From contig JAGTQY010000003.1 in NCBI GenBank assembly GCA_018396815.1, forward strand, positions 69,481 through 133,480: a stretch of DNA of 64,000 nt, in the 5' to 3' direction. Positions within the stretch are counted from its first letter, which is position 1; each line of letters starts with the position of its first letter. Positions 1-57,426 of this stretch are shown here, piece by piece. The notes under the pieces are model-generated. The model made no database searches, was not told where the DNA came from, and saw nothing but the letters and a program-made list of their open reading frames with translations. A program made the position numbers and the translations under genes. Origin of the DNA: Candidatus Bathyarchaeota archaeon. GTDB lineage: Archaea; Thermoproteota; Bathyarchaeia; 40CM-2-53-6; DTDX01.

Positions 1-693
1 CTTTCTGAAGATTACTTAGCTATAACTCTTTTAGCTATAAGTGAAGTTACATACTTAGTTTTATACTATAATGTAGATATTATAGGTGGATACTATGGTG
101 TTTCTATTCCAGATGTGTTAGCTTTTATTCCTGGTACCAAAAGAATTTTCGTTTTTACAGGTATATTAATTTTAATAGTGTTTGGATGCTACATTTTTAT
201 TGAGAAGCTTCTTAATTCACCTTATGGTAGAGTTCTTAAAGCTATGAGGGAAAATGAATTAGTGGCTAAAGCTTATGGAAAAAACGTTATGATGCTTAGG
301 GTTAAAACAGTAGCTTTAGGATCTTCAATAGCTTCTTTAGCAGGGGCACTTTACTCTTTTTACTCAGTTAATGTTATAACTACAAGCTTTAGTAGAGTTG
401 AGTGGACGTTTTACCCAATTTTAATGCTTATTTTAGGTGGAGCTGGAAACAATGTTGGGGCTCTTTTAGGGGCTTTCACATTTGTATTAACTAAAGTTTT
501 ATTAATAACTTATAAATTTGAAATCACTTCTATTTTACATCTTCCATTTCAAGCTGTATGGTTAGAATATATATTGTTTGGTGTAGTTATGCTTTTAATC
601 CTTCTTTTTAAACCTGAAGGATTAATTAAGGAAAAACCTGTATTCACTAAAGCTGTAAAAAAAGTTGTTAAAACTAAACAAAAACAAAAATAA
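1..693 (+). CDS. Branched-chain amino acid ABC transporter permease (LivM-like). C-terminal part only; the gene starts before the window.
   Basis: The reading frame is open from base 1 with no upstream stop. The product is polytopic and hydrophobic with glycine-rich LivM-like segments (GGAGNNVGALLGA) and a basic C-terminal tail. Confidence 0.55.
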   Translation, partial: LSEDYLAITLLAISEVTYLVLYYNVDIIGGYYGVSIPDVLAFIPGTKRIFVFTGILILIVFGCYIFIEKLLNSPYGRVLKAMRENELVAKAYGKNVMMLRVKTVALGSSIASLAGALYSFYSVNVITTSFSRVEWTFYPILMLILGGAGNNVGALLGAFTFVLTKVLLITYKFEITSILHLPFQAVWLEYILFGVVMLLILLFKPEGLIKEKPVFTKAVKKVVKTKQKQK

Positions 694-1050
694 ATTTAAA
701 TTTTCATAAAAAGTAAAATTTCATCAAAACCCATTAAGTATAATTTTGATCCATAAGTTTCTGTTTACTCTTTACGATTTAAAATACTATTTCTTCAAGC
801 GCTTAATTGAATAATCCTTCTCAAGATCAAATATAAACTGAGTTTTCTTAATAATAATTTATTTTTCGTTTTACTAATGTTTTACCTTTAAGGCAATAGC
901 TTTTTTACTTGTTTAAATTAACTATACATAGGAATAACTGTGTTTAGAACCATTTAACTGAAAAAAATTTTGAATTTATTTCTTCTAAGCCATTTTCTTT
1001 GAAACCTTTCAAGTTGAACTCTGTTTACTCTTTTTAAAAAGCAAGCTTTT
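645..1050. repeat. Copy A of a roughly 400-bp duplicated segment (3' end of the LivM-like gene plus a cupin gene). The cupin part is degraded here.
   Basis: Collinear nucleotide similarity to 2185..2585. Examples: taaagctgtaaaaaaagttgttaaaactaaacaaaaa against taaagctgtaaaaaagttgttgaaactaagcaaaaa; tttcttcaagcgcttaattgaat against tttcttcaagcgctttaactgaat; tacctttaaggca and cataggaat are shared, with a constant offset of about 1525 nt. Confidence 0.6.
705..1050 (-). pseudogene. Cupin-domain gene relic, a decayed paralogue of the intact cupin gene at 2224..2583.
   Basis: The reverse-strand translation gives recognisable but stop-interrupted remnants of the cupin protein. LNGSKHSYSYV* aligns to LVKMAPGAVIPMHSH, and SIKRLKK* aligns to HSVKALEET. 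No intact ORF remains. Confidence 0.45.
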
Positions 1051-1079
1051 TAACTTCCATAAATCACTACAATATTCTT

Positions 1080-1982
1080 TTATGCTAATTGTTTAGTATG
1101 TTCCATCCTCATTTTTTTATGAATTTTAATTAATCTCTTCAGTATTTCAGATTTTAACTCGCTATATTCATAATTCTTTGTATTCACTACAATTTTTACT
1201 AAATAATATTCTTTATCACTTTGCTCATCTATTTTTACACTTAAAACTGGCATATCTTTAAGTGATTCATTAATTTTCATTAAAACTGTTTCTGGATCAT
1301 ATATTATTGGGAACTCATATCTAACATTAAAAATATAATCTTGATCTTTTATATATTCTACAACGCCAGAGTTTGTAGCTAAAATAGTGTTTGGAATTTT
1401 TATTATTTGTCCTTCTTCACTTATTATTTTAGTATAAAAAAGACTTACTTCAAGGACTGTGCCCATGTAACCTGCATATACAAAATCATAAGAGAAATAC
1501 TTGTAGGCAGGTAAATTAGCAATTTGAAATGGAATGTTTGATGTTAATATTCTTATTCGGCTTCCAGGTTTAACCATTCCTGTTAAAAGCATTAATATAC
1601 CTGAGAAAAAATTGCTAAGAATAGGTTGTACAGCTAAACCTATTATTAAACCGCTGAATGTTGCTCCTGCAAGCCAAGCCTCCGGTAATGAAGTAACATA
1701 GGCTACTGTAGTTGTTATAGAAATAATATACCCGATTATTGAAATGCTGTTTCCTATAATTAAAGCCTGCTCTTTAAGCTTTAATTTAAGATATTCAATA
1801 ATTAATAAAGATATTTGACGTGTTATAATAATACCGCCAATTAAAATAATTGCTGCATAAACATATTTAAAATATTCAATATATTTAGCGGTTATTACTA
1901 ATTCTCTTTTTAATACTGTGACTAAAACTGCTGCGAATATTATTAAACTTAATGTAGTAACAATTTTAATAATGGGCTTCAT
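1080..1982 (-). CDS. Small-conductance mechanosensitive channel (MscS family).
   Basis: 300 aa. Three or four N-terminal transmembrane helices are followed by a beta-rich cytoplasmic domain, the typical MscS architecture. The gene lies between the two duplicated segments. Confidence 0.5.
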   Translation of the reverse strand: MKPIIKIVTTLSLIIFAAVLVTVLKRELVITAKYIEYFKYVYAAIILIGGIIITRQISLLIIEYLKLKLKEQALIIGNSISIIGYIISITTTVAYVTSLPEAWLAGATFSGLIIGLAVQPILSNFFSGILMLLTGMVKPGSRIRILTSNIPFQIANLPAYKYFSYDFVYAGYMGTVLEVSLFYTKIISEEGQIIKIPNTILATNSGVVEYIKDQDYIFNVRYEFPIIYDPETVLMKINESLKDMPVLSVKIDEQSDKEYYLVKIVVNTKNYEYSELKSEILKRLIKIHKKMRMEHTKQLA

Positions 1983-2184
1983 AAATATAACCTTACTACC
2001 TTAACCTTTTTACTCATTAAAACGTTGTGCGCGCATCATAACTTCACTAATGTAATCGATTAACCGCTTTATTTTCAGTATAAAGTTTAACTTATTTTGC
2101 TTCATTTAAAGCTTACTGTAAACATATAGATTTAAAACATTTAATTCCATTAATTAAGATTATTTTTAATAAAAACCTGCATCT

Positions 2185-2585
2185 ATTAAAGCTGTAAAAA
2201 AGTTGTTGAAACTAAGCAAAAATTTATTGATTACAATTTTGTTCCGCGGTTTTTTGTTTTTTTGAATAATCTTCACGTGGAGGTGAAAACACATCTAAAA
2301 ATATTGTTTCTTCAAGCGCTTTAACTGAATGTTCTTCTTTAGGCTCAAATTTATAAGCTGAATTCTCTTCAATAATTAATTCTTTTTCTTTAGTTTTAAT
2401 TAATGCTTTACCTTTAAGGCATATTCCCATTTGTTCATTTATATGGCTGTGCATAGGAATTACTGCTCCTGGAGCCATTTTAACTAGAAGGAATTGAATT
2501 TTATCGCTTTCTAAAACGATTTTTCCTAAAACATCTTGAGTTAAAACCCATTCTACTCCTTCAAAAAGTTTTTTCGCTTGCATGA
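2185..2585. repeat. Copy B of the duplicated segment. The LivM-tail part is a non-coding relic here and the cupin gene is intact.
   Basis: See copy A. Positions 2188..2228 match the last roughly 40 nt of the LivM-like CDS (36 of 38 identical) but lie outside any ORF. Confidence 0.6.
2224..2583 (-). CDS. Cupin-domain protein.
   Basis: 119 aa with the cupin His/Glu metal-ligand pattern (MHSHINEQ ... H). Confidence 0.6.
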   Translation of the reverse strand: MQAKKLFEGVEWVLTQDVLGKIVLESDKIQFLLVKMAPGAVIPMHSHINEQMGICLKGKALIKTKEKELIIEENSAYKFEPKEEHSVKALEETIFLDVFSPPREDYSKKQKTAEQNCNQ

Positions 2586-2646
2586 TAAGAAATTTAAGAG
2601 TTTAAATAGATAAGTTTATATAACAGTGTTATAAAACATATTATAG

Positions 2647-3066
2647 GTGAAGAAAATGCCTAAACTCTCAATAATAATCTCCTCGGAAAAATTGGATAAA
2701 ATTTATCCAGCAGCGATTTTAGCTAGCACTGCAGCAGCTATGGATTGGGAAGCTGAATTATTTTTCACATTCTGGGGTTTACTCGCCTTAAAAAAAGGTT
2801 ATGAACCGTCTGAAGTCAGCTTAGATTACGCGCAATATAAAGATGCTTTAGGTAAAGCAATAGAGCAAGGCTCAATACCTAAATGGAAAAACTTGATTAA
2901 AGAAGCTAAGGAAAAAGGAAAAGTGAAAGTTTACGCTTGCTCAACAACAATGGGCGTCTTCAATATTAAAAAAGAAGATTTAGAAGATTTTGTTGATAAC
3001 ATTCTTGGAGCAGCTTCCTTTCTATCTAAAGCTAAAGATTCTCAAGCAACATTGTTTATTTCATGA
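2647..3066 (+). CDS. DsrE/DsrF-like sulfur-relay protein.
   Basis: 139 aa with the DsrE/DsrF fold signature, including a Cys in the VYACSTTM context. It sits directly upstream of TusA. Confidence 0.55.
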   Translation: MKKMPKLSIIISSEKLDKIYPAAILASTAAAMDWEAELFFTFWGLLALKKGYEPSEVSLDYAQYKDALGKAIEQGSIPKWKNLIKEAKEKGKVKVYACSTTMGVFNIKKEDLEDFVDNILGAASFLSKAKDSQATLFIS

Positions 3067-3082
3067 AGGAGGAATAAACAAA

Positions 3083-3310
3083 ATGAATGAAGTAATAACT
3101 GTTGATGCTAGATATAAATCATGTCCAGGCCCATTAATAGCTATAAGCGAAGCTGTTAAAAATGCTAAACCAAAACAAATAATTAAGCTTTTAGCTACCG
3201 ATCCAGCTGCACCCTTTGATATTAAAGCTTGGAGTGAAAGCGTTGGTCACAAGCTTTTAAAAGCTTCAAAAAGAAATGGTATATATGAAATTGAAATTGA
3301 AGTAAGGTAG
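3083..3310 (+). CDS. tusA: TusA-like sulfurtransferase.
   Basis: The CPGP motif (YKSCPGPL) sits in a protein of about 75 aa. A GAAGGAGG Shine-Dalgarno lies 7 nt upstream of the ATG at 3083. The ORF-track start at 2990 is an out-of-context extension. Confidence 0.7.
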   Translation: MNEVITVDARYKSCPGPLIAISEAVKNAKPKQIIKLLATDPAAPFDIKAWSESVGHKLLKASKRNGIYEIEIEVR

Positions 3311-3342
3311 GTGAAACAAATATTACTGAAGCCGTTAAAAGC

Positions 3343-4533
3343 GTGAAAAAACTTATAAAAACTCATGGAAAACCTAAAAAAGAAGTTTATTTTGATTCTG
3401 AAAACTCAGGCTTAATCTTTCCTGAAGCTCTTAAAGAGCTTATAAAAGCTTATAGGAAAACTGGTTATGGGAATCCTGCTATAACGCATAAAATCGGTTG
3501 GGAATCTTATGAAAAACTTTATAAAGCAACAGAAAAATTATCAAAAATCTTAAATGTTTCACAAAACGAGTTAACTTATACGCATAACGCTACAGAAGCT
3601 AACAATTTAGCTATTATAGGCGCTGCAAAAGCTAATAAAACTGAGAAGAAAAAAATTATAGTTTCAAGCATAGAACATTTAAGCGTCATATTTGCAGCTG
3701 AAGAGCTTCAGAAACATGGTTATAAAATTGTTAAGGTTCCAGTTGATAAAGAAGGCTTCGTAAATAAAGAATTTATTAATAAAGAGGTTGATAAAGAAAC
3801 CTTTTTAGTAAGCATAGCTCCAATAAATCATGAAATAGGCGTTATTCAAGATTTAAAGGAGATTAGCGAATTAATTAAGGATAAAAACCCTAATACGCTT
3901 TTTCATGTTGATGCAAGTGATGCTTTTGGAAGAATTAAATTAAACCTTGATAAAATTGATTTAGCAAGCTTTAGCAGCCATAAAATTTATGGTCCAAAAG
4001 GTGCAGGTCTCTTATATACTAAAGAAGGTGTAAAGCTTGAACCAATAATTCACGGCCAGTTAACTGCCCAAAAACTATGGCCTAGCGTAGAAAACATTCC
4101 AGCTATAGCAGGATTTGCTAAAGCAGCTGAGTTAATTCATTTAACAGATATGAATAAAATTTCTCGATTAAGAGATAAATTGATAGAAGGAATTTTAAAT
4201 GAAGTTGATCAAAGCATGCTTAATGGTCCTAAAGGATTTAAAAGAGCTCCAGACAATGTTAATATATCTTTCCTTAATATTGAAGGAGAAGCTGTAACTG
4301 TTGAGTTAAGTATGAGGGGGGTTTATGTCTCAAGTGGAAGCGCTTGCACAAGCAGAATTCTTCAGCCAAGCCATGTTCTTTTAGCTATAGGAAGAAGATA
4401 TGAGGAAGCGCATGGAAGCATACTCATGAGGATAACGCCTTTCCATAATGAGGAGGATATTGAATATTCATTAAACCAAATTTATGAAGGAGTAAAAAGG
4501 CTTCAGTTAATAAGCCCTATTAAAGGAGGTTAA
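3343..4533 (+). CDS. Cysteine desulfurase (class V aminotransferase, IscS/NifS-like).
   Basis: The PLP-lysine motif SSHKIYGPKGAGLLY and the active-site loop SSGSACTS are both present. The start is GTG. Confidence 0.8.
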   Translation: MKKLIKTHGKPKKEVYFDSENSGLIFPEALKELIKAYRKTGYGNPAITHKIGWESYEKLYKATEKLSKILNVSQNELTYTHNATEANNLAIIGAAKANKTEKKKIIVSSIEHLSVIFAAEELQKHGYKIVKVPVDKEGFVNKEFINKEVDKETFLVSIAPINHEIGVIQDLKEISELIKDKNPNTLFHVDASDAFGRIKLNLDKIDLASFSSHKIYGPKGAGLLYTKEGVKLEPIIHGQLTAQKLWPSVENIPAIAGFAKAAELIHLTDMNKISRLRDKLIEGILNEVDQSMLNGPKGFKRAPDNVNISFLNIEGEAVTVELSMRGVYVSSGSACTSRILQPSHVLLAIGRRYEEAHGSILMRITPFHNEEDIEYSLNQIYEGVKRLQLISPIKGG

Positions 4534-4536
4534 AGA

Positions 4537-5028
4537 ATGACGAATAGAATTCCCTTACCCTATAACCCTAAAGTTTTAGAGCTTTTTAAAAACCCTAAAA
4601 ATTTAGGAAAAATTAACGATGCTAACGCTCAAGCTACAGCTGGAAGCTTAGCTTGCGGAGATATGATCTCTATTTACCTTAAAATAGTTGATGAAAAAAT
4701 TGTTGAAGCAAGCTTTGAAAGCTATGGTTGCGCAGCTAATATAGCTGCAGCAAGCATAATGACTGAAATGGTTAAAGAGAAAACTCTTAAAGAAGCATGG
4801 CAAATCTCTTGGAGGCAAATTTCAGATGCTCTCGGCGGTTTACCAGCAGTTAAATATCATTGCGGAGTTTTAGCTATAGGCGCTTTAAGAAGAGCTATAC
4901 GAGCATATTTTAAAAATAAAATAAAGCCTGATTGGCTTCCTGAAGAACCAACTTCAGATGAAAAACATGCTCTTGAAGAAGAAAAGTTAATGGAAATTTT
5001 ATCAAAAAGAATTGAAAAAACTCAATAG
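4537..5028 (+). CDS. iscU: Fe-S cluster scaffold protein (IscU/NifU-like).
   Basis: Conserved Cys ligands (GSLACGD, GCAANIAAAS, HCGVLA). A GGAGG Shine-Dalgarno precedes the start, which lies 4 nt after the desulfurase stop. Confidence 0.75.
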   Translation: MTNRIPLPYNPKVLELFKNPKNLGKINDANAQATAGSLACGDMISIYLKIVDEKIVEASFESYGCAANIAAASIMTEMVKEKTLKEAWQISWRQISDALGGLPAVKYHCGVLAIGALRRAIRAYFKNKIKPDWLPEEPTSDEKHALEEEKLMEILSKRIEKTQ

Positions 5029-5040
5029 TAAAAAGCTTTA

Positions 5041-5300
5041 CTGAAGTTAAAGAGGTAAAGCTTTTAGCTGAAACGATAGTTTTAGTTGCTCTCTCAAGTA
5101 TTCTCCACTTAATTAGAAAATATATACTTTACCTCAAGGCGGTTCAATAACAGCCGGCTCTATGATACCTATTTTTCTCCTAGCTTTAAGAAGAGGAATA
5201 AAAATAGGTGTTCTTAGCAGTTTAGCTTTTGGGCTTATAGTATTAATTGAGGAACCTTTTATTTATCATCCAGTTCAAGGCGCTTTACTCCGCTATATAT
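5041..5300 (+). pseudogene. Frame-disrupted fragment of a YuaJ/ThiT-type membrane transporter (ECF S-component-like).
   Basis: Two frames joined by a single shift read EVKEVKLLAETIVLVALSSILHLIRKYILY then LPQGGSITAGSMIPIFLLALRRGIKIGVLSSLAFGLIVLIEE. The LPQGGS motif is typical of the YuaJ family. There is no start codon and the total length is only about 90 aa. Confidence 0.35.
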
Positions 5301-5524
5301 AACGGGAGTTATTTAATTGTAGAATTCATATAATTATTTATTTTTATTTATTTTCTTTTAAAAAGAAAAATTTAACTATTCTTTAATAATGAAGAGTCTC
5401 TTTAGGTCTCGAAATATTAAATGCTTTCAAAACTTAGGTGTTAGCAAGACAGAGTTATAAATTTTTATTACTAATCATACGCATTTAAAGGGAGATTTAT
5501 AAGAGGCAAAAGTTTTTAAATAAT

Positions 5525-5965
5525 ATGATTAAATCCTTATATATAATGGGTATAAATAATCTTGGTGAATATTTAAAAAAGCTTACTTATGAGCATATAA
5601 TATTTTATAAAAGAGTTGAAGAGTTAGAAAATTTATTAGAAACGAATCCCTTAAACGCTATTGAGGTCTCCACGCATTTTTTAGAGAACGTTGTTTTTCC
5701 GCACATGGTAAAAGAAGAAAAAACAGTAATTCCAGTAATTCCTAATAAAGCGGGGGAAAGAGAAAAAATTTTAATAGAAGAGTTGAGTAAAGAGCATGAG
5801 GAAATGGAAAAGCTTTATGAAAGCTTTAGAAAAAGCTTATCTAATGGTAAAATTACCGATGCAGCTGCTCAACTAAAGAAGATTTTAACGCTTCTTAAGC
5901 TTCATTCGAAGAAAGAGGAATCTTTATTCGAATTTATTTTGAAAAGATACCTAGAAGAGAAGTGA
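5525..5965 (+). CDS. Hemerythrin-like (HHE cation-binding) domain protein.
   Basis: Repeated H..E and E..H spacing (EHIIFYKRVEELE, HMVKEE, EHEEME, HSKKEE). Confidence 0.4.
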   Translation: MIKSLYIMGINNLGEYLKKLTYEHIIFYKRVEELENLLETNPLNAIEVSTHFLENVVFPHMVKEEKTVIPVIPNKAGEREKILIEELSKEHEEMEKLYESFRKSLSNGKITDAAAQLKKILTLLKLHSKKEESLFEFILKRYLEEK

Positions 5966-8336: not shown

Positions 8337-9536
8337 CTATACTTCTAAATTTTTACTTAATTTAGTTAAAGGTTCAATTTTAGCTTTAAAGTTAATAATG
8401 AAAACATCCTCTACTCTTACTCCACCAATTTTTTGGTTATATAATCCAGGTTCAATTGTGAATACATTCCCTTTTTTTAATTCATCTTCACTAAAAATGG
8501 AGAGAAATGGGTGTTCACCAATTGTTAATCCTATTCCATGACCTAAAGAATGAATAAATCCTTTCTCAACTTTAAAAGAGCTTTTAATTGTTGAGTAACC
8601 TTTTTTTTCAAAGAAATCGCAAACAGTATTCATAACTTCTTTACCTTTAACTCCTTCCTTAATTTTTTCAATAGCTTTTTCTTGAGCTTCTAAAACTAAT
8701 TGATGCATTTCTTTAATTTTTTTTGAAGCTCTACCAACAACTATTGTTCTAGTTATATCAGTAAAATAACCATGCTTCTCTTGAGGGAATAAATCAAAAA
8801 CTATTGGTTTATTTAAGATTAAAAAATCTTTATCGCTACCTAAATAATGGGGTTGAGCTGATTTAACTCCAGTAGCTAAAATAAAATCTTCACTTAAAAT
8901 TAACTCTTCATCAATTAATAATTGCTTTACGTAAAGTTTAACATTTTTTACAGTTGCTTTCTTCCCCTTATATAAAAGATAATTTCCTAAAACCTTTAGG
9001 TTTGAAATGAACTCTATAGTTTTCTTCATAATTTCTTCTGTTTTTCTTGAAGCATTCTTGATTTTTTCAATTTCCTCGATGCTTTTAGTTTCCATTAAAG
9101 ACTCAAGCAAAGTTGGCGTTTTTTCTATAACAATTTGATAACCAAAATTTTTAAGCGCTTCAGTAATTCTTAATATTTTTGATGCTTCATTTTTCCCAGC
9201 TAAAATTATTCTTCCAGAAACTTTATGTTCTTCAAGAATTTTTTTAAGAAAAATTAAAAAAGCTTTTTCTGCTCCGTGACTTTTCAAAATTTCTTCATAT
9301 TTATAATCACTAAAAGTTTTAATGTTTTTTACGTTTCCTTTTTTTGCTTCAATTAAATCTATAGAATTAACAATTAATAATGGGGGTTCAAAAAGTTTCT
9401 TTAAGTATACTCCTCCTCTTGGAATAGAAGTGCCAACTAAATAATGAAACTCATGGTTACTATATGTTGAATCAGCAAAAGCTACAACTGCTTCTAAACC
9501 TCTTTTCTCCATTTCTTTATCAATATCTTGAAGCAT
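8337..9536 (-). CDS. Xaa-Pro aminopeptidase/prolidase (M24B family).
   Basis: Creatinase N-terminal fold plus an M24 C-terminal domain with metal-ligand motifs (HGYFTDITRT, HSLGHGIGL, TIEPGLY). Confidence 0.7.
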   Translation of the reverse strand: MLQDIDKEMEKRGLEAVVAFADSTYSNHEFHYLVGTSIPRGGVYLKKLFEPPLLIVNSIDLIEAKKGNVKNIKTFSDYKYEEILKSHGAEKAFLIFLKKILEEHKVSGRIILAGKNEASKILRITEALKNFGYQIVIEKTPTLLESLMETKSIEEIEKIKNASRKTEEIMKKTIEFISNLKVLGNYLLYKGKKATVKNVKLYVKQLLIDEELILSEDFILATGVKSAQPHYLGSDKDFLILNKPIVFDLFPQEKHGYFTDITRTIVVGRASKKIKEMHQLVLEAQEKAIEKIKEGVKGKEVMNTVCDFFEKKGYSTIKSSFKVEKGFIHSLGHGIGLTIGEHPFLSIFSEDELKKGNVFTIEPGLYNQKIGGVRVEDVFIINFKAKIEPLTKLSKNLEV

Positions 9537-9651: not shown

Positions 9652-11958
9652 ATGAGTGCCTTAAATATGCTTTTAACTCCAGTTAAGGAAGCTGTTAACT
9701 CTTTTGAAAGAAGATTAATTGTTTTAACTGGTGAAGAAGGAGAAAATATTGGAACTAAATTAATTGAGGAGTATTGTTCTTTAAAAAAGAATGAAGTTAA
9801 CGCGCTTTACGTTGGGGATAACTTTGAAGAAAACACCTCCAGCTTTAAACGTTTCGTTAAATTTAAATGTTTAATGGAGAAGCTTAAAGAGTTTAAACTT
9901 CAAAATACTTCTTTTAAGGAATCATTAAATGTTTTAGGTTTAACTTTTGATTTACTTATTTTAGATTTAAATGAAAATTTAACACCTAATGATATTGGTG
10001 TTTTAATTGAAGTGGTTAAAGGAGGAGGTTTAATCTTATTTTTAACTCCAAAACTTTCAGATTGGGAATCATGTATAACAACTTTTCATAAAAAACTTGT
10101 TGTTTTACCGGAGGATTACATTCGATTAAGACATATATTTGTTAAATGGTTTATTAAAAAATTAAAGGAAAGTAAAGGTGTATGGATTTATGATCCACCA
10201 AATATTTATGGAGAAGCTTTACAACCTAGCGAAATTAAAAAAACTACTAATATAGAAATTGATGAAAATATTATTTTTCCAAAACAGCTTTATGAATTAT
10301 GTGTAACTCAAGATCAAATTCAAGCCCTTTCAAGTTTTGAGAAACTTTTAGATAGAAAAGGAAAAAAAGCTTTAGTTATGATAGCGGATAGAGGGAGAGG
10401 AAAATCTTCGCTGCTTGGGCTTTCAGCAGCTGGTTTACTTTTTAAACTTGGAGCAAAAAAACCTTTATTTATTACTTTTACAGCGCCTTCTCAATCAAAT
10501 TTAGCTACTGCTCTTCAATTTGTTAAAATAGCTTTTGAAAAATTGAATGTAAAAATTAAAGAGTTTAAAGTCAATAATGAAATTTCAACTTTAAAATGTA
10601 AATATGGCGTTATAGAAGTTTTAAGTCCATATAAAGCTTTAAGTAGCCGTGGGAAAATAGCTTTTATTGATGAAGCTGCAGGTATACCTGTTCCTCTTCT
10701 TTTTAAATTTTTAAGGAAATTTAGAACAGTTGTTTTTTCTTCTACAATTCACGGTTATGAAGGTGCTGGAAGAGGATTCAGCTTAAGATTTCTTAAAGCT
10801 TTAGAAGAAAATAAATCTATTGAAACAATTAAAGTTGAATTAAAAACACCTATAAGGTATAGTATTAATGACCCAATTGAAAAATGGCTTTATAACACTT
10901 TACTTTTAAATGCTGAGCCCCCTCAAATTTCTTTACCAATTGATTTAAATAAAGTATTTTATGAAAAACCAAATTTAGAAGAATGGTTTAGTTTAAACGA
11001 GAAACCTTTAAGAGAATTTGTTGGAATATGTATTTTAGCTCACTATAGAAATAGACCAAATGATTTTGCTATGCTTGCTGATGCACCCCACCATCAAGCT
11101 AGAGTGTTAAAGCTTTCATCAGGAGAAATAATTACAGTTTTACATTTAGCTGAAGAAGGAGGTCTTCCAGATGAGCTTATAGACAAAATAGCTGAAGGGG
11201 AAGATATTCCTGGAGTTGTTATTCCAAGCTGTATAATAAAACATTATACGCCTTTAAAATTCTTTGCAAAACAAAAAGGTTTAAGGATTGTTAGAATAGC
11301 TGTTCATCCTGAACTGGAAAGAAAAGGGCTGGGCTCTAAAGCTTTAAAAAATCTTATTGATGAAAGTGAAGCTCTAGGATACGATTGGATTGGTGCAGTA
11401 TTTGGTGCGACAATTCCTTTATTAAGTTTTTGGTTGAAAAATGGGTTTACACCAATTCATTTAAGTCCATCTAGAAACATAGTCTCAGGTGAATATAGTG
11501 TTGTTGTAATTAAACCTTTAACTAGAAGAGCTTTAAAATTAACGTTAACTTTAAATCAAGAGTTTAAATTGAAACTTTTAAATTCGCTTTTCACAACTTA
11601 TTTTACACTCGATCCAAAGTTAGCTAGATTGCTTTTTAAAGGAGTTGAAGAACCAAAATTATTTAAACCGAAATTAACTAAAGTTCAAGAGAAAAGACTT
11701 TTAATGTATAGTAAAGAAGTATTAACTTTTGAATCTGCTGCAGACGCTATTAAAGCTTTATTAGACGCTCATTTTATGAGCAGCGATTCAAGCAGAATTG
11801 AAGTTACACCTGAGGTAGAAGCAGCTTTAATAGCTAAATGTCTTCAAGGAAAAAGCTGGAGTTTAACAGCTAAACTTTCATTAATAAATCGTGAAGAAAT
11901 AAAAGCTATTCTTAGAGAAAACATTAAAAAAATGGTGAGTTATTACGTCAAGGATTAA
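9652..11958 (+). CDS. tmcA: tRNA(Met) cytidine acetyltransferase TmcA (ac4C34 writer, NAT10/Kre33 homologue).
   Basis: 768 aa. DUF1726 N-terminus, RecD-like helicase core (GRGKSS Walker A) and a C-terminal GNAT domain, the TmcA architecture. GGAGG Shine-Dalgarno upstream. Confidence 0.8.
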   Translation: MSALNMLLTPVKEAVNSFERRLIVLTGEEGENIGTKLIEEYCSLKKNEVNALYVGDNFEENTSSFKRFVKFKCLMEKLKEFKLQNTSFKESLNVLGLTFDLLILDLNENLTPNDIGVLIEVVKGGGLILFLTPKLSDWESCITTFHKKLVVLPEDYIRLRHIFVKWFIKKLKESKGVWIYDPPNIYGEALQPSEIKKTTNIEIDENIIFPKQLYELCVTQDQIQALSSFEKLLDRKGKKALVMIADRGRGKSSLLGLSAAGLLFKLGAKKPLFITFTAPSQSNLATALQFVKIAFEKLNVKIKEFKVNNEISTLKCKYGVIEVLSPYKALSSRGKIAFIDEAAGIPVPLLFKFLRKFRTVVFSSTIHGYEGAGRGFSLRFLKALEENKSIETIKVELKTPIRYSINDPIEKWLYNTLLLNAEPPQISLPIDLNKVFYEKPNLEEWFSLNEKPLREFVGICILAHYRNRPNDFAMLADAPHHQARVLKLSSGEIITVLHLAEEGGLPDELIDKIAEGEDIPGVVIPSCIIKHYTPLKFFAKQKGLRIVRIAVHPELERKGLGSKALKNLIDESEALGYDWIGAVFGATIPLLSFWLKNGFTPIHLSPSRNIVSGEYSVVVIKPLTRRALKLTLTLNQEFKLKLLNSLFTTYFTLDPKLARLLFKGVEEPKLFKPKLTKVQEKRLLMYSKEVLTFESAADAIKALLDAHFMSSDSSRIEVTPEVEAALIAKCLQGKSWSLTAKLSLINREEIKAILRENIKKMVSYYVKD

Positions 11959-56646: not shown

Positions 56647-57426
56647 TCAATCTATTTGCCTTCCTTCTCCCCCAAAGTTCTTTATTGTTGTTAAAGCCTC
56701 ATTTATCGCTTTTTTCAAAGCAGCTTCAGCTTCTCCATAATCGTTAGCTGAAACCTCTATTCTATATTTCGGTGCTCCTACAGTATAGGTTGCTATAGTT
56801 ACCCCCCTTTTCTTAATTTTTTCAGCATTAAGTAAGCTTTGTTTTATAGCTTTTATTCCATCAGGTTTTAAACAAGTTAGTTCTATTGTTGCTGAAACTT
56901 TAGCTTTTTCAAGTTTTATTTTTAATTTAGCAGATTCAGTTAAAGCTTTAGCCCATTCTGAAGAAATTCCAAGCTTTATAAATGTTTCTTCTCCTTCTTC
57001 TACAGCTTCCTCAAAAGCATCATATAAACTTTCATACTTTTTTAAAATAGCTTCTTTAATTGCATTAGCTTCTTCATCAGTTTTTTTTAATTTTTCAATA
57101 GCTGTCTTCATTATTGACTCTGCTTTTTTATCCTTTTTCCATTGAAGTAGTTTTTCTGTTTTTTCTCTTCCAGTGACTCTTCTTAAGGATAAATCTATAT
57201 GACCTTTTTCAGGATCGACTCTTAAAACTTTTAAAACTAGTTTTTGTCCTTCTCTTACGTGATCTCTTATATTTCTAACCCATGTTGATGCAATTTCAGA
57301 TATATGTAATAAACCTTCTTGATCTTCATATTCATCCAGTGTCACATAAGCACCATAACTTTCTATTCGTTTTACTGTTGCTATTACTAAATCTCCTTCC
57401 TCAGGGTAATCCCTATTTATTGACAT
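56647..57426 (-). CDS. Translation initiation factor 2 alpha subunit.
   Basis: S1 domain followed by the helical and alpha/beta domains. Confidence 0.9.
   Translation of the reverse strand: MSINRDYPEEGDLVIATVKRIESYGAYVTLDEYEDQEGLLHISEIASTWVRNIRDHVREGQKLVLKVLRVDPEKGHIDLSLRRVTGREKTEKLLQWKKDKKAESIMKTAIEKLKKTDEEANAIKEAILKKYESLYDAFEEAVEEGEETFIKLGISSEWAKALTESAKLKIKLEKAKVSATIELTCLKPDGIKAIKQSLLNAEKIKKRGVTIATYTVGAPKYRIEVSANDYGEAEAALKKAINEALTTIKNFGGEGRQID

Follow-up and report, generated by a model that had tools for sequence, protein, structure and literature searches.

The window analysed here is a 64,000-nt stretch of the genome of a Candidatus Bathyarchaeota archaeon (assembly GCA_018396815.1, contig JAGTQY010000003.1, positions 69,481 to 133,480), in which a gene for a small-conductance mechanosensitive channel (mscS) lies between two copies of a segment made up of the 3' end of a livM-like permease gene and a cupin gene. 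The mscS gene was very probably relocated by duplication to a site between cupin and livM, which were adjacent ancestrally. That it arrived there through a duplication of the livM tail and cupin follows from the gene order of sister lineages, in which cupin and livM are adjacent and mscS stands beside a polyprenyl synthase gene. A prior reading of the window made from its sequence only (the sequence-only reading) had proposed that mscS arrived or was rearranged through a duplication or recombination event, and the sister gene orders support it. The sister loci used throughout are L025 and L026 (GCA_018396775.1 and GCA_038852005.1) and L027 and L028 (JGI 3300043569 and a Logan run).

Two diverged copies of a livM-tail and cupin segment

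The paralogous segments are collinear and occupy window positions ~632-1060 (copy A) and ~2171-2583 (copy B). A gapless repeat finder returned four collinear direct-repeat blocks, at 632-662 vs 2171-2201 (87% identity), 658-684 vs 2196-2222 (93%), 781-804 vs 2298-2321 (92%) and 858-895 vs 2384-2421 (79%), with offsets of 1517-1539 nt. Gapped local alignment of 781-1041 with 2298-2568 gave 199 identical positions of 252 (79%) and a score of 123; the highest control scores were 42 (300 shuffles) and 44 (400 random window pieces). MAFFT, which opened fewer gaps, placed the cupin parts of the two copies at ~68% identity. The duplication is real and far beyond chance, and the self-alignment bears out the sequence-only reading, which had described 645..1050 and 2185..2585 as collinear paralogues with ~75-95% identity by block (measured, 79-93%) at an offset of ~1525 nt. 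Semi-global alignment resolves three zones: a conserved livM-tail block (632-684 vs 2171-2222), a middle (685-780 vs 2223-2297) that aligns poorly because of indels in both copies, and the cupin body.

The first 8 kb of the window has a G+C content of 23-36% and the repeat region 23-30%. With such a composition, and with genomes that are metagenome-assembled (MAGs), a mis-assembled or collapsed repeat or a fortuitous AT-rich similarity might be suspected; this is extremely improbable, since the alignment score exceeds all 700 controls and the homology is also seen against the orthologues of other species. The exact cupin protein was found on at least 23 contigs, drawn from independent NCBI MAGs (GCA_0388..., Candidatus Bathyarchaeia) and Logan assemblies, which share the layout DsrE - cupin - mscS - ~390-nt gap - livM with few single nucleotide polymorphisms (SNPs) or indels between them; over 4.6 kb, 11 of the loci match the window at 99.1-99.9% identity. 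This shared layout excludes an assembly artefact, a doubt that the sequence-only reading had itself raised, and the 20-30% divergence of the copies excludes a collapse by the assembler.

The livM-like gene, an ABC permease (1-693, + strand; Pfam BPD_transp_2, PF02653, E 6e-37), is cut by the start of the window, which holds its 3' part of 230 codons. It is ~90% identical at the amino acid level to LivM of L025 and L027, and in loci L001-L012 it is surrounded by livH, Peripla_BP_6 and two ABC_tran genes, as belongs to a LivM/LivH-type permease. The duplicated tail has its functional copy A in the last ~55-75 nt of this gene (619/632-684). The copy B counterpart (2171-2222, ~52 nt, + strand) is a non-coding footprint of livM codons, 87-93% identical to 632-684, that may extend to 2147 with a 12-nt insertion in between. 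The footprint breaks off 9 nt ahead of where the livM stop codon would be and directly abuts the stop codon of the copy B cupin, so that copy B has lost the entire ancestral spacer of 59-68 nt. In a four-way alignment of both copies with the orthologous loci from two further lineages (L025 and L027), the homology of the footprint to livM ends abruptly. The tail is thus coding in copy A only, where it is the true gene end, and a footprint in copy B, as had been proposed from the sequence; the length of ~40 nt then given for it does not hold, the copy B footprint being ~52 nt.

Copy B carries an intact cupin_2 gene of 119 amino acids (2224-2583, - strand; Pfam Cupin_2, PF07883, E 2.2e-10) that scores 40.6 bits vs a gathering cut-off of 27.2. 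The protein is 83% identical to its orthologue in L025 and L026 (P0002) and 80% identical to that in L027 and L028 (P0003), its ratio of nonsynonymous to synonymous substitution rates (dN/dS) is 0.19 vs L025, and it has no variant among 12 strains; the gene is under purifying selection. One 2-kb contig (L029; GCA_038895255.1, JAWANR010000243.1) is 100% identical to window 2379-4246 and diverges in the middle of this gene (breakpoint at window 2378/2379), with 196 nt (contig 1869-2064) that match nothing in the window and a shortened 88-aa 'cupin' product (P0004). Either the strain has an insertion or rearrangement of its own at this point, or the contig end is chimeric. That the contig might be a recombinant between copies A and B without mscS was considered and rejected, as the divergent tail matches neither copy A nor other window sequence.

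The cupin of copy A (psi-cupin, approximately 734-1060, - strand) was delimited by DNA alignment to copy B and by tblastn remnants. No open reading frame (ORF) of 30 or more amino acids exists in 694-1079, and stop codons interrupt every frame, at least 9 per frame. Compared with three intact orthologues, the relic has deletions of 2, 8, 2, 1 and 24 nt and insertions of 4, 1 and 2 nt, of which 7 of 8 break the frame; it is a cupin pseudogene by homology and by its disabling mutations. In the four-way alignment, copy A carries 66 singleton substitutions and the three intact cupins 14, 5 and 16. Peptide remnants include CLKGKTLVKRK (vs CLKGKALIKTKEK), ALEEIVF (vs ALEETIFL) and VIPMYS (vs VIPMHS). 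The relic start codon, at 1058-1060, lies 19 nt past the mscS stop codon (1080-1082), and since psi-cupin retains essentially no upstream region it was promoterless from birth, which explains why copy A was the cupin copy that died. Copy A is thus decaying under relaxed constraint. The contrast of an intact cupin in B with a stop-riddled relic in A, and the reciprocal decay of the two copies, had been recognized in the sequence-only reading and agree with the Pfam match of copy B, the stops and frameshifts, the selection estimates, the excess of singletons in copy A and the coding state of the livM tail. The peptide 'LNGSKHSYSYV' (followed by a stop) that it quoted does come from the relic but for the most part translates a frame without homology; in the homologous frame the sequence is 'MVLNTVIPMYS', also followed by a stop.

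Within psi-cupin, a 13-mer, CTGTTTACTCTTT, occurs exactly at 761-773 (+), in the C-terminal part of the relic, and at 1021-1033 (+), in the N-terminal part; it had earlier been reported as a 14-nt direct repeat, of which the two copies stand and the length is 13 nt. The whole window holds 4 matches at no more than 1 mismatch vs 0.33 expected. Of 12 population sequences, 8 have the change T1024C in the second copy together with an adjacent 6-nt insertion. Because the copies derive from different regions of the cupin and one is polymorphic, the 13-mer was rejected as a functional or mechanistic element and is regarded as incidental.

Variation in the population is concentrated in the relic. Psi-cupin holds three SNPs, one 1-nt indel and one 6-nt indel, or 5 events in 386 nt, vs 8 in the 3454 nt that follow (Fisher p = 0.0065), a comparison that leaves aside a divergent livM patch in one contig; such a concentration is expected under relaxed constraint. 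Although fixed in the population, the relic is its most polymorphic segment. The patch set aside belongs to strain L013 (Logan SRR30574052), which has 42 SNPs in ~340 nt of livM at its contig end (equivalent to window 42-379) and is near-identical thereafter; either homologous recombination with a divergent lineage or a chimeric assembly could account for it.

Ancestral gene order and the relocated mscS gene

All four sister loci (L025, L026, L027 and L028) have the order MFS(-) - cupin(+) - livM(-); mscS is absent from this interval, and the convergent cupin and livM genes have their stop codons 59-68 nt apart. The comparison with related genomes that the sequence-only reading called for thus gives livM and cupin adjacent without mscS. 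The 73-kb contig of L025 reads trpB - trpA - polyprenyl synthase - mscS - M24 peptidase - NUDIX - DUF2284 - MFS(-) - cupin - livM(-), and the series from polyprenyl synthase and mscS through M24 and MFS to cupin and livM is present on one contig in both L025 and L026. The L025 mscS ortholog therefore lies ~4 kb from cupin, beside polyprenyl synthase. In L037, from the same metagenome as L027, polyprenyl synthase is followed by a contig-end ORF that is an MscS N-terminus (MKPIIKLAAILTLIALTAIFVTILKEAL...), so the adjacency of polyprenyl synthase and mscS is common to both sisters. The window keeps M24 - NUDIX - DUF2284 - MFS in the same relative order, with 74-90% amino acid identity to the sister, and the neighbour of M24 is a tmcA-like gene instead of mscS. 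The polyprenyl synthase gene of the window species is intact on a different contig in the same assemblies (L034-L036), where it follows the trp operon and is followed by EamA, not mscS; its 3' end, discussed below, would therefore have been copied, not cut. Two wider scans were uninformative for the ancestral state or found no further members of the clade: a scan of GTDB species genomes anchored on LivM yielded only relatives at 61-75% identity with no cupin, mscS or dsrE nearby, which for that reason say nothing of the ancestral order, and a metagenome scan with the cupin protein returned only cupins of ~30% identity.

The relocated mscS gene (1080-1982, - strand; 300 amino acids; Pfam MS_channel_2nd E 1.4e-8) scores 35.1 bits vs a cut-off of 20.2 for the MscS family (PF00924), and more than 100 homologues are annotated as small-conductance mechanosensitive channels. 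According to both the gene list and Pfam it is the only gene between the copies, as first noted from the sequence. The protein is 79% identical to that of L025 and is the sole match in the window, with none beside M24. Against L025, mscS has a dS of 0.425 and a dN/dS of 0.26, and cupin a dS of 0.43; the equality of the two dS values fits vertical orthology and an intragenomic move.

A 5' flank of 188 nt (1983-2170, - strand) appears to have travelled with mscS and consists of conserved proximal sequence and a probable relic of the polyprenyl synthase gene. The proximal part includes the conserved AAGGTTATAT(T/A)TATG at 1980-1996, of which the final ATG (1980-1982) is the mscS start codon. Semi-global alignment of the flank with the 3' end of the L025 polyprenyl synthase gene (last ~200 nt and spacer) gave z = 4.2, a score reached by 0/1000 dinucleotide shuffles and 1/1000 random window pieces, and alignment with the 3' end from L038 gave z = 3.6. 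With an nhmmer profile of four polyprenyl synthase 3' ends, searched on both strands, 2062-2113 (-) was the second-best match in the window (E = 0.08-0.25). Peptide remnants in the flank (ALNEAK and LIDYISE) match GALNAAK and the C-terminal IIDYISESLEWYI, with its stop, of polyprenyl synthase orthologues; a protein-level search for the relic was not significant, and the signal is at the DNA and profile level only. A decayed polyprenyl synthase 3' end with its core at 2062-2113 is thus probable, not proven, upstream of mscS, and a 31-aa ORF at 2010-2105 lies within it. The top match of the same profile, at 56861-57071 (-; E 0.006-0.017), has a bias score of 32 and is on that account judged to be probably compositional; tblastn with the polyprenyl synthase protein found nothing there.

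The two novel junctions can be placed closely. The first (J1) is the left edge of the livM-tail footprint, at 2170/2171 or possibly 2147. The second (J2) comprises the 19 nt between the mscS stop codon and the psi-cupin ATG (1061-1079, - strand), defined by sequence comparison; it contains ATTGTAG...TT(T)ATG, which resembles the L025 sequence just upstream of the M24 start and, being too short for statistics, is a hint only.

The age of the duplication was estimated from copy A. Its p-distance to copy B, L025 and L027 is 0.31-0.34 (MAFFT), about equidistant on a long branch, and informative sites weakly favour a grouping of A with B (9 vs 5 vs 5). Taking a neutral rate from the dS of 0.43 to L025, the distance between A and B indicates a duplication nearly as old as the sister split; since the sisters are without it, the event postdates the split, and would have followed soon after.

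Routes to the present arrangement

Any model needs the two novel junctions and the loss of the original mscS. The route that we favour, with somewhat less than even confidence, is a tandem duplication of ~5.3 kb followed by complementary losses. Its left end would lie ~150-190 nt inside the 3' end of polyprenyl synthase and its right end ~55-75 nt inside the 3' end of livM, so that the tandem arrangement would create J1 by joining the livM tail to the polyprenyl synthase 3' end (window ~2147-2171). A deletion of ~3.9 kb would then have removed the second M24-NUDIX-DUF2284-MFS copy together with the cupin promoter, fusing the second mscS copy to within 19 nt of the ATG of the second cupin copy (J2). 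The first mscS copy would have been lost, in connection with the synteny break that parts the trp-polyprenyl synthase block from M24. The redundant, promoterless cupin beside livM would have decayed to psi-cupin, and the livM tail fragment beside the intact cupin would have decayed as non-coding DNA. The net effect would be a shift of mscS by about 4-5 kb, from the left to the right end of a 4-kb gene block, with its orientation unchanged.

The arrangement in the window agrees with this route at several points. The orientation of mscS relative to the block is kept, mscS and cupin being on the same strand as in L025, and the livM-tail footprint abuts the upstream flank of mscS; a tandem duplication predicts both at its new junction. 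The model also predicts that the cupin to survive would be the copy with the promoter side, as is the case. These are the features expected of tandem duplication-random loss (TDRL): compared with the ancestral order, taken from outgroups (L025-L028, L037), a single gene has shifted across the block without being inverted, and at the new junction the right end of the block meets its left end. Of the remnants that TDRL predicts, psi-cupin and the livM tail are in place and the polyprenyl synthase relic is a probable, weak match; neither a remnant of the second M24...MFS copy, 19 nt remaining at J2, nor a significant one of the first mscS copy at the donor site was found.

The same two junctions would arise with one event fewer by one-step template switching of the copy-paste type (fork stalling and template switching or microhomology-mediated break-induced replication, FoSTeS/MMBIR-like), with no 5.3-kb intermediate and with later loss of the original mscS. 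A fork replicating cupin-livM would, after ~55-75 nt of livM, jump to the 3' end of polyprenyl synthase, proceed through mscS to about the M24 start, and from there return to the cupin start codon, giving cupin - livM tail - polyprenyl 3' - mscS - cupin - livM. Possible microhomologies are present at J1 (CTTAA(T)TAAT / CTTAATTAAT) and J2 (TTATG), but they are AT-rich and too short to test, and nothing in the data separates template switching from the tandem duplication. Simple tandem duplications and deletions are much commoner than double template switches, and we consider this path rather unlikely.

The position of J2 bears on a model in two events, in which a tandem duplication of ~0.5 kb [livM tail + spacer + cupin] was followed by insertion of an mscS cassette at the junction. 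Small tandem duplications are common and the architecture is compatible with one, but the cassette would have had to land exactly at the junction, with no more than 19 nt left on one side, and three novel junctions are needed instead of two; the model leaves unexplained why donor and insert share their orientation and sit at opposite ends of one collinear block. We regard this model as less parsimonious and improbable. An insertion by a transposon or insertion sequence is like the locus in that direct repeats bracket the inserted gene, but a target-site duplication measures 2-15 bp vs ~450 nt here, and the insert carries a fragment of its former neighbour. Neither transposase nor integrase nor terminal inverted repeats were found, mscS being the sole gene between the repeats, and a repeat search around the insert detected no flanking inverted repeats beyond AT-rich chance matches.

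Direct repeats of a homology region flanking an insert are also the classic product of a single crossover, and mscS could have been imported by Campbell-type integration of circular or linear DNA from a related strain that had mscS beside a cupin-livM-tail homology. The polyprenyl synthase relic is slightly closer to L025 and L038 than to the host's own gene, and strain L013 has the possible recombination tract in livM described above. Against import, the dS of mscS vs L025 equals that of cupin and its 79% amino acid identity falls within the 74-91% range of the flanking genes, a divergence that matches vertical descent; the insert comes from ~4 kb away, no integrase, transposase, plasmid, vector or mobile-element genes are nearby, and the donor molecule would already need J1 and J2. 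The host polyprenyl synthase is more divergent overall (68% amino acid identity), which accounts for the weaker match to it. Import is less parsimonious, gains no support from the divergence data and is regarded as improbable.

Several results count against the favoured account of a relocation through a large tandem duplication. Neither the full 5.3-kb intermediate nor two intact cupin or mscS copies were found, whether among homologues of polyprenyl synthase, MscS and cupin or by the metagenome scan; the clade is sparsely sampled, with three lineages. At the donor site, a search for remnants of the original mscS gave z = 1.1 on the upstream side of M24 in the window and z = 2.1 downstream of polyprenyl synthase in L034, neither of them significant. 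The flank showed no significant match to the polyprenyl synthase 3' ends of L037 and of L034, the host's own gene, and with nhmmer E = 0.08-0.25 support for the relic is only moderate; that the host's gene matches less well can be attributed to its divergence (68% amino acid identity vs 78-85% among sisters). Other routes that share these two junctions lead to an identical end product. Lastly, mscS orthologues of more distant Bathyarchaeia (67-69%) adjoin trehalose-synthesis genes, a third context, so that mscS is generally mobile in the clade and has moved more than once. In three of these relatives (L030, L031 and L033), the genes after mscS encode a further MS-channel-like protein, a trehalose-phosphate phosphatase and a GT4 glycosyltransferase, an osmoadaptation-type cluster that is absent from the window locus.

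Neighbouring genes and significance of the locus

Past cupin B, Pfam identifies DsrE, TusA and a class-V aminotransferase (cysteine desulfurase). These belong to an extra block of ~3.3 kb, dsrE-tusA-nifS-nifU-(yuaJ)-hemerythrin (2647-5965), between cupin B and MFS; in both sisters MFS is directly beside cupin (L025 7575-8000, L027 985-1064). The YuaJ-like thiamine-transporter gene at ~5049-5372 is a pseudogene with a frameshift, an internal deletion of ~160 nt and a stop; it is intact (169 amino acids) in strains L002 and L003 and split differently in others, and is an instance of ongoing strain-level decay adjoining the repeat locus. Synteny with the sisters ends just upstream of the M24 peptidase gene (8337-9536, -), where a gene for a 768-aa TmcA/NAT10-like tRNA cytidine acetyltransferase (9652-11958, +) replaces the trp operon, polyprenyl synthase and mscS. 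At least three rearrangements thus fall within ~10 kb: the extra block, the mscS move and the break next to M24. An Rfam scan of the whole window found no known RNA family, and a bacterial-type promoter and terminator scan gave no signal above shuffles, its models not being applicable to archaea.

The TDRL model of gene-order change is established for animal mitochondrial genomes and is used in this sense in PMC5481413; a literature search on TDRL returned essentially mitogenome papers only, of which the same paper is an example. The window locus resembles TDRL in the tandem duplication of a block, the loss of one copy per gene, the apparent transposition without change of orientation, and the pseudogenes and spacer remnants that mark lost copies. 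It differs in lying on an archaeal chromosome among protein-coding genes, in having duplication ends inside genes that leave shortened gene ends, and in combining one loss by clean deletion with a loss of cupin by slow decay that is still visible; the large intermediate and the order in which the losses occurred are deduced. The locus also resembles the reciprocal degeneration of prokaryotic duplicates, in that copy A keeps the livM end, copy B keeps the cupin and the rest decays neutrally, and differs in that the duplicated unit is one whole gene and the 3' fragment of a second. Which copy survived would have been largely predetermined, because only the livM tail of A was attached to a gene and only the cupin of B kept its promoter.

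Two cautions for annotation follow. The gap at 694-1079 is a relic, neither a gene nor a regulatory element, and the 31-aa ORF at 2010-2105 is likewise a relic and not a gene. Psi-cupin may in turn be used as a neutral clock.

The locus reflects ordinary genome evolution, unusually well resolved; it contains no molecular system that is new and touches no open question. Tentatively, and with less confidence than in the route itself, it may be read as a clearly documented TDRL change of gene order in an archaeal chromosome whose scars, namely psi-cupin, the livM tail and the polyprenyl synthase 3' end, can be dated and whose relic has indels that still segregate. To our knowledge, TDRL is accepted for mitochondria and has rarely been demonstrated with surviving relics in prokaryotic chromosomes. 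What the locus offers is a sequence-level reconstruction of one gene changing its neighbourhood in an uncultured hot-spring archaeon, for which both novel junctions, the ancestral state in the sisters and the pseudogene are all available, and it would serve as a textbook-style example.

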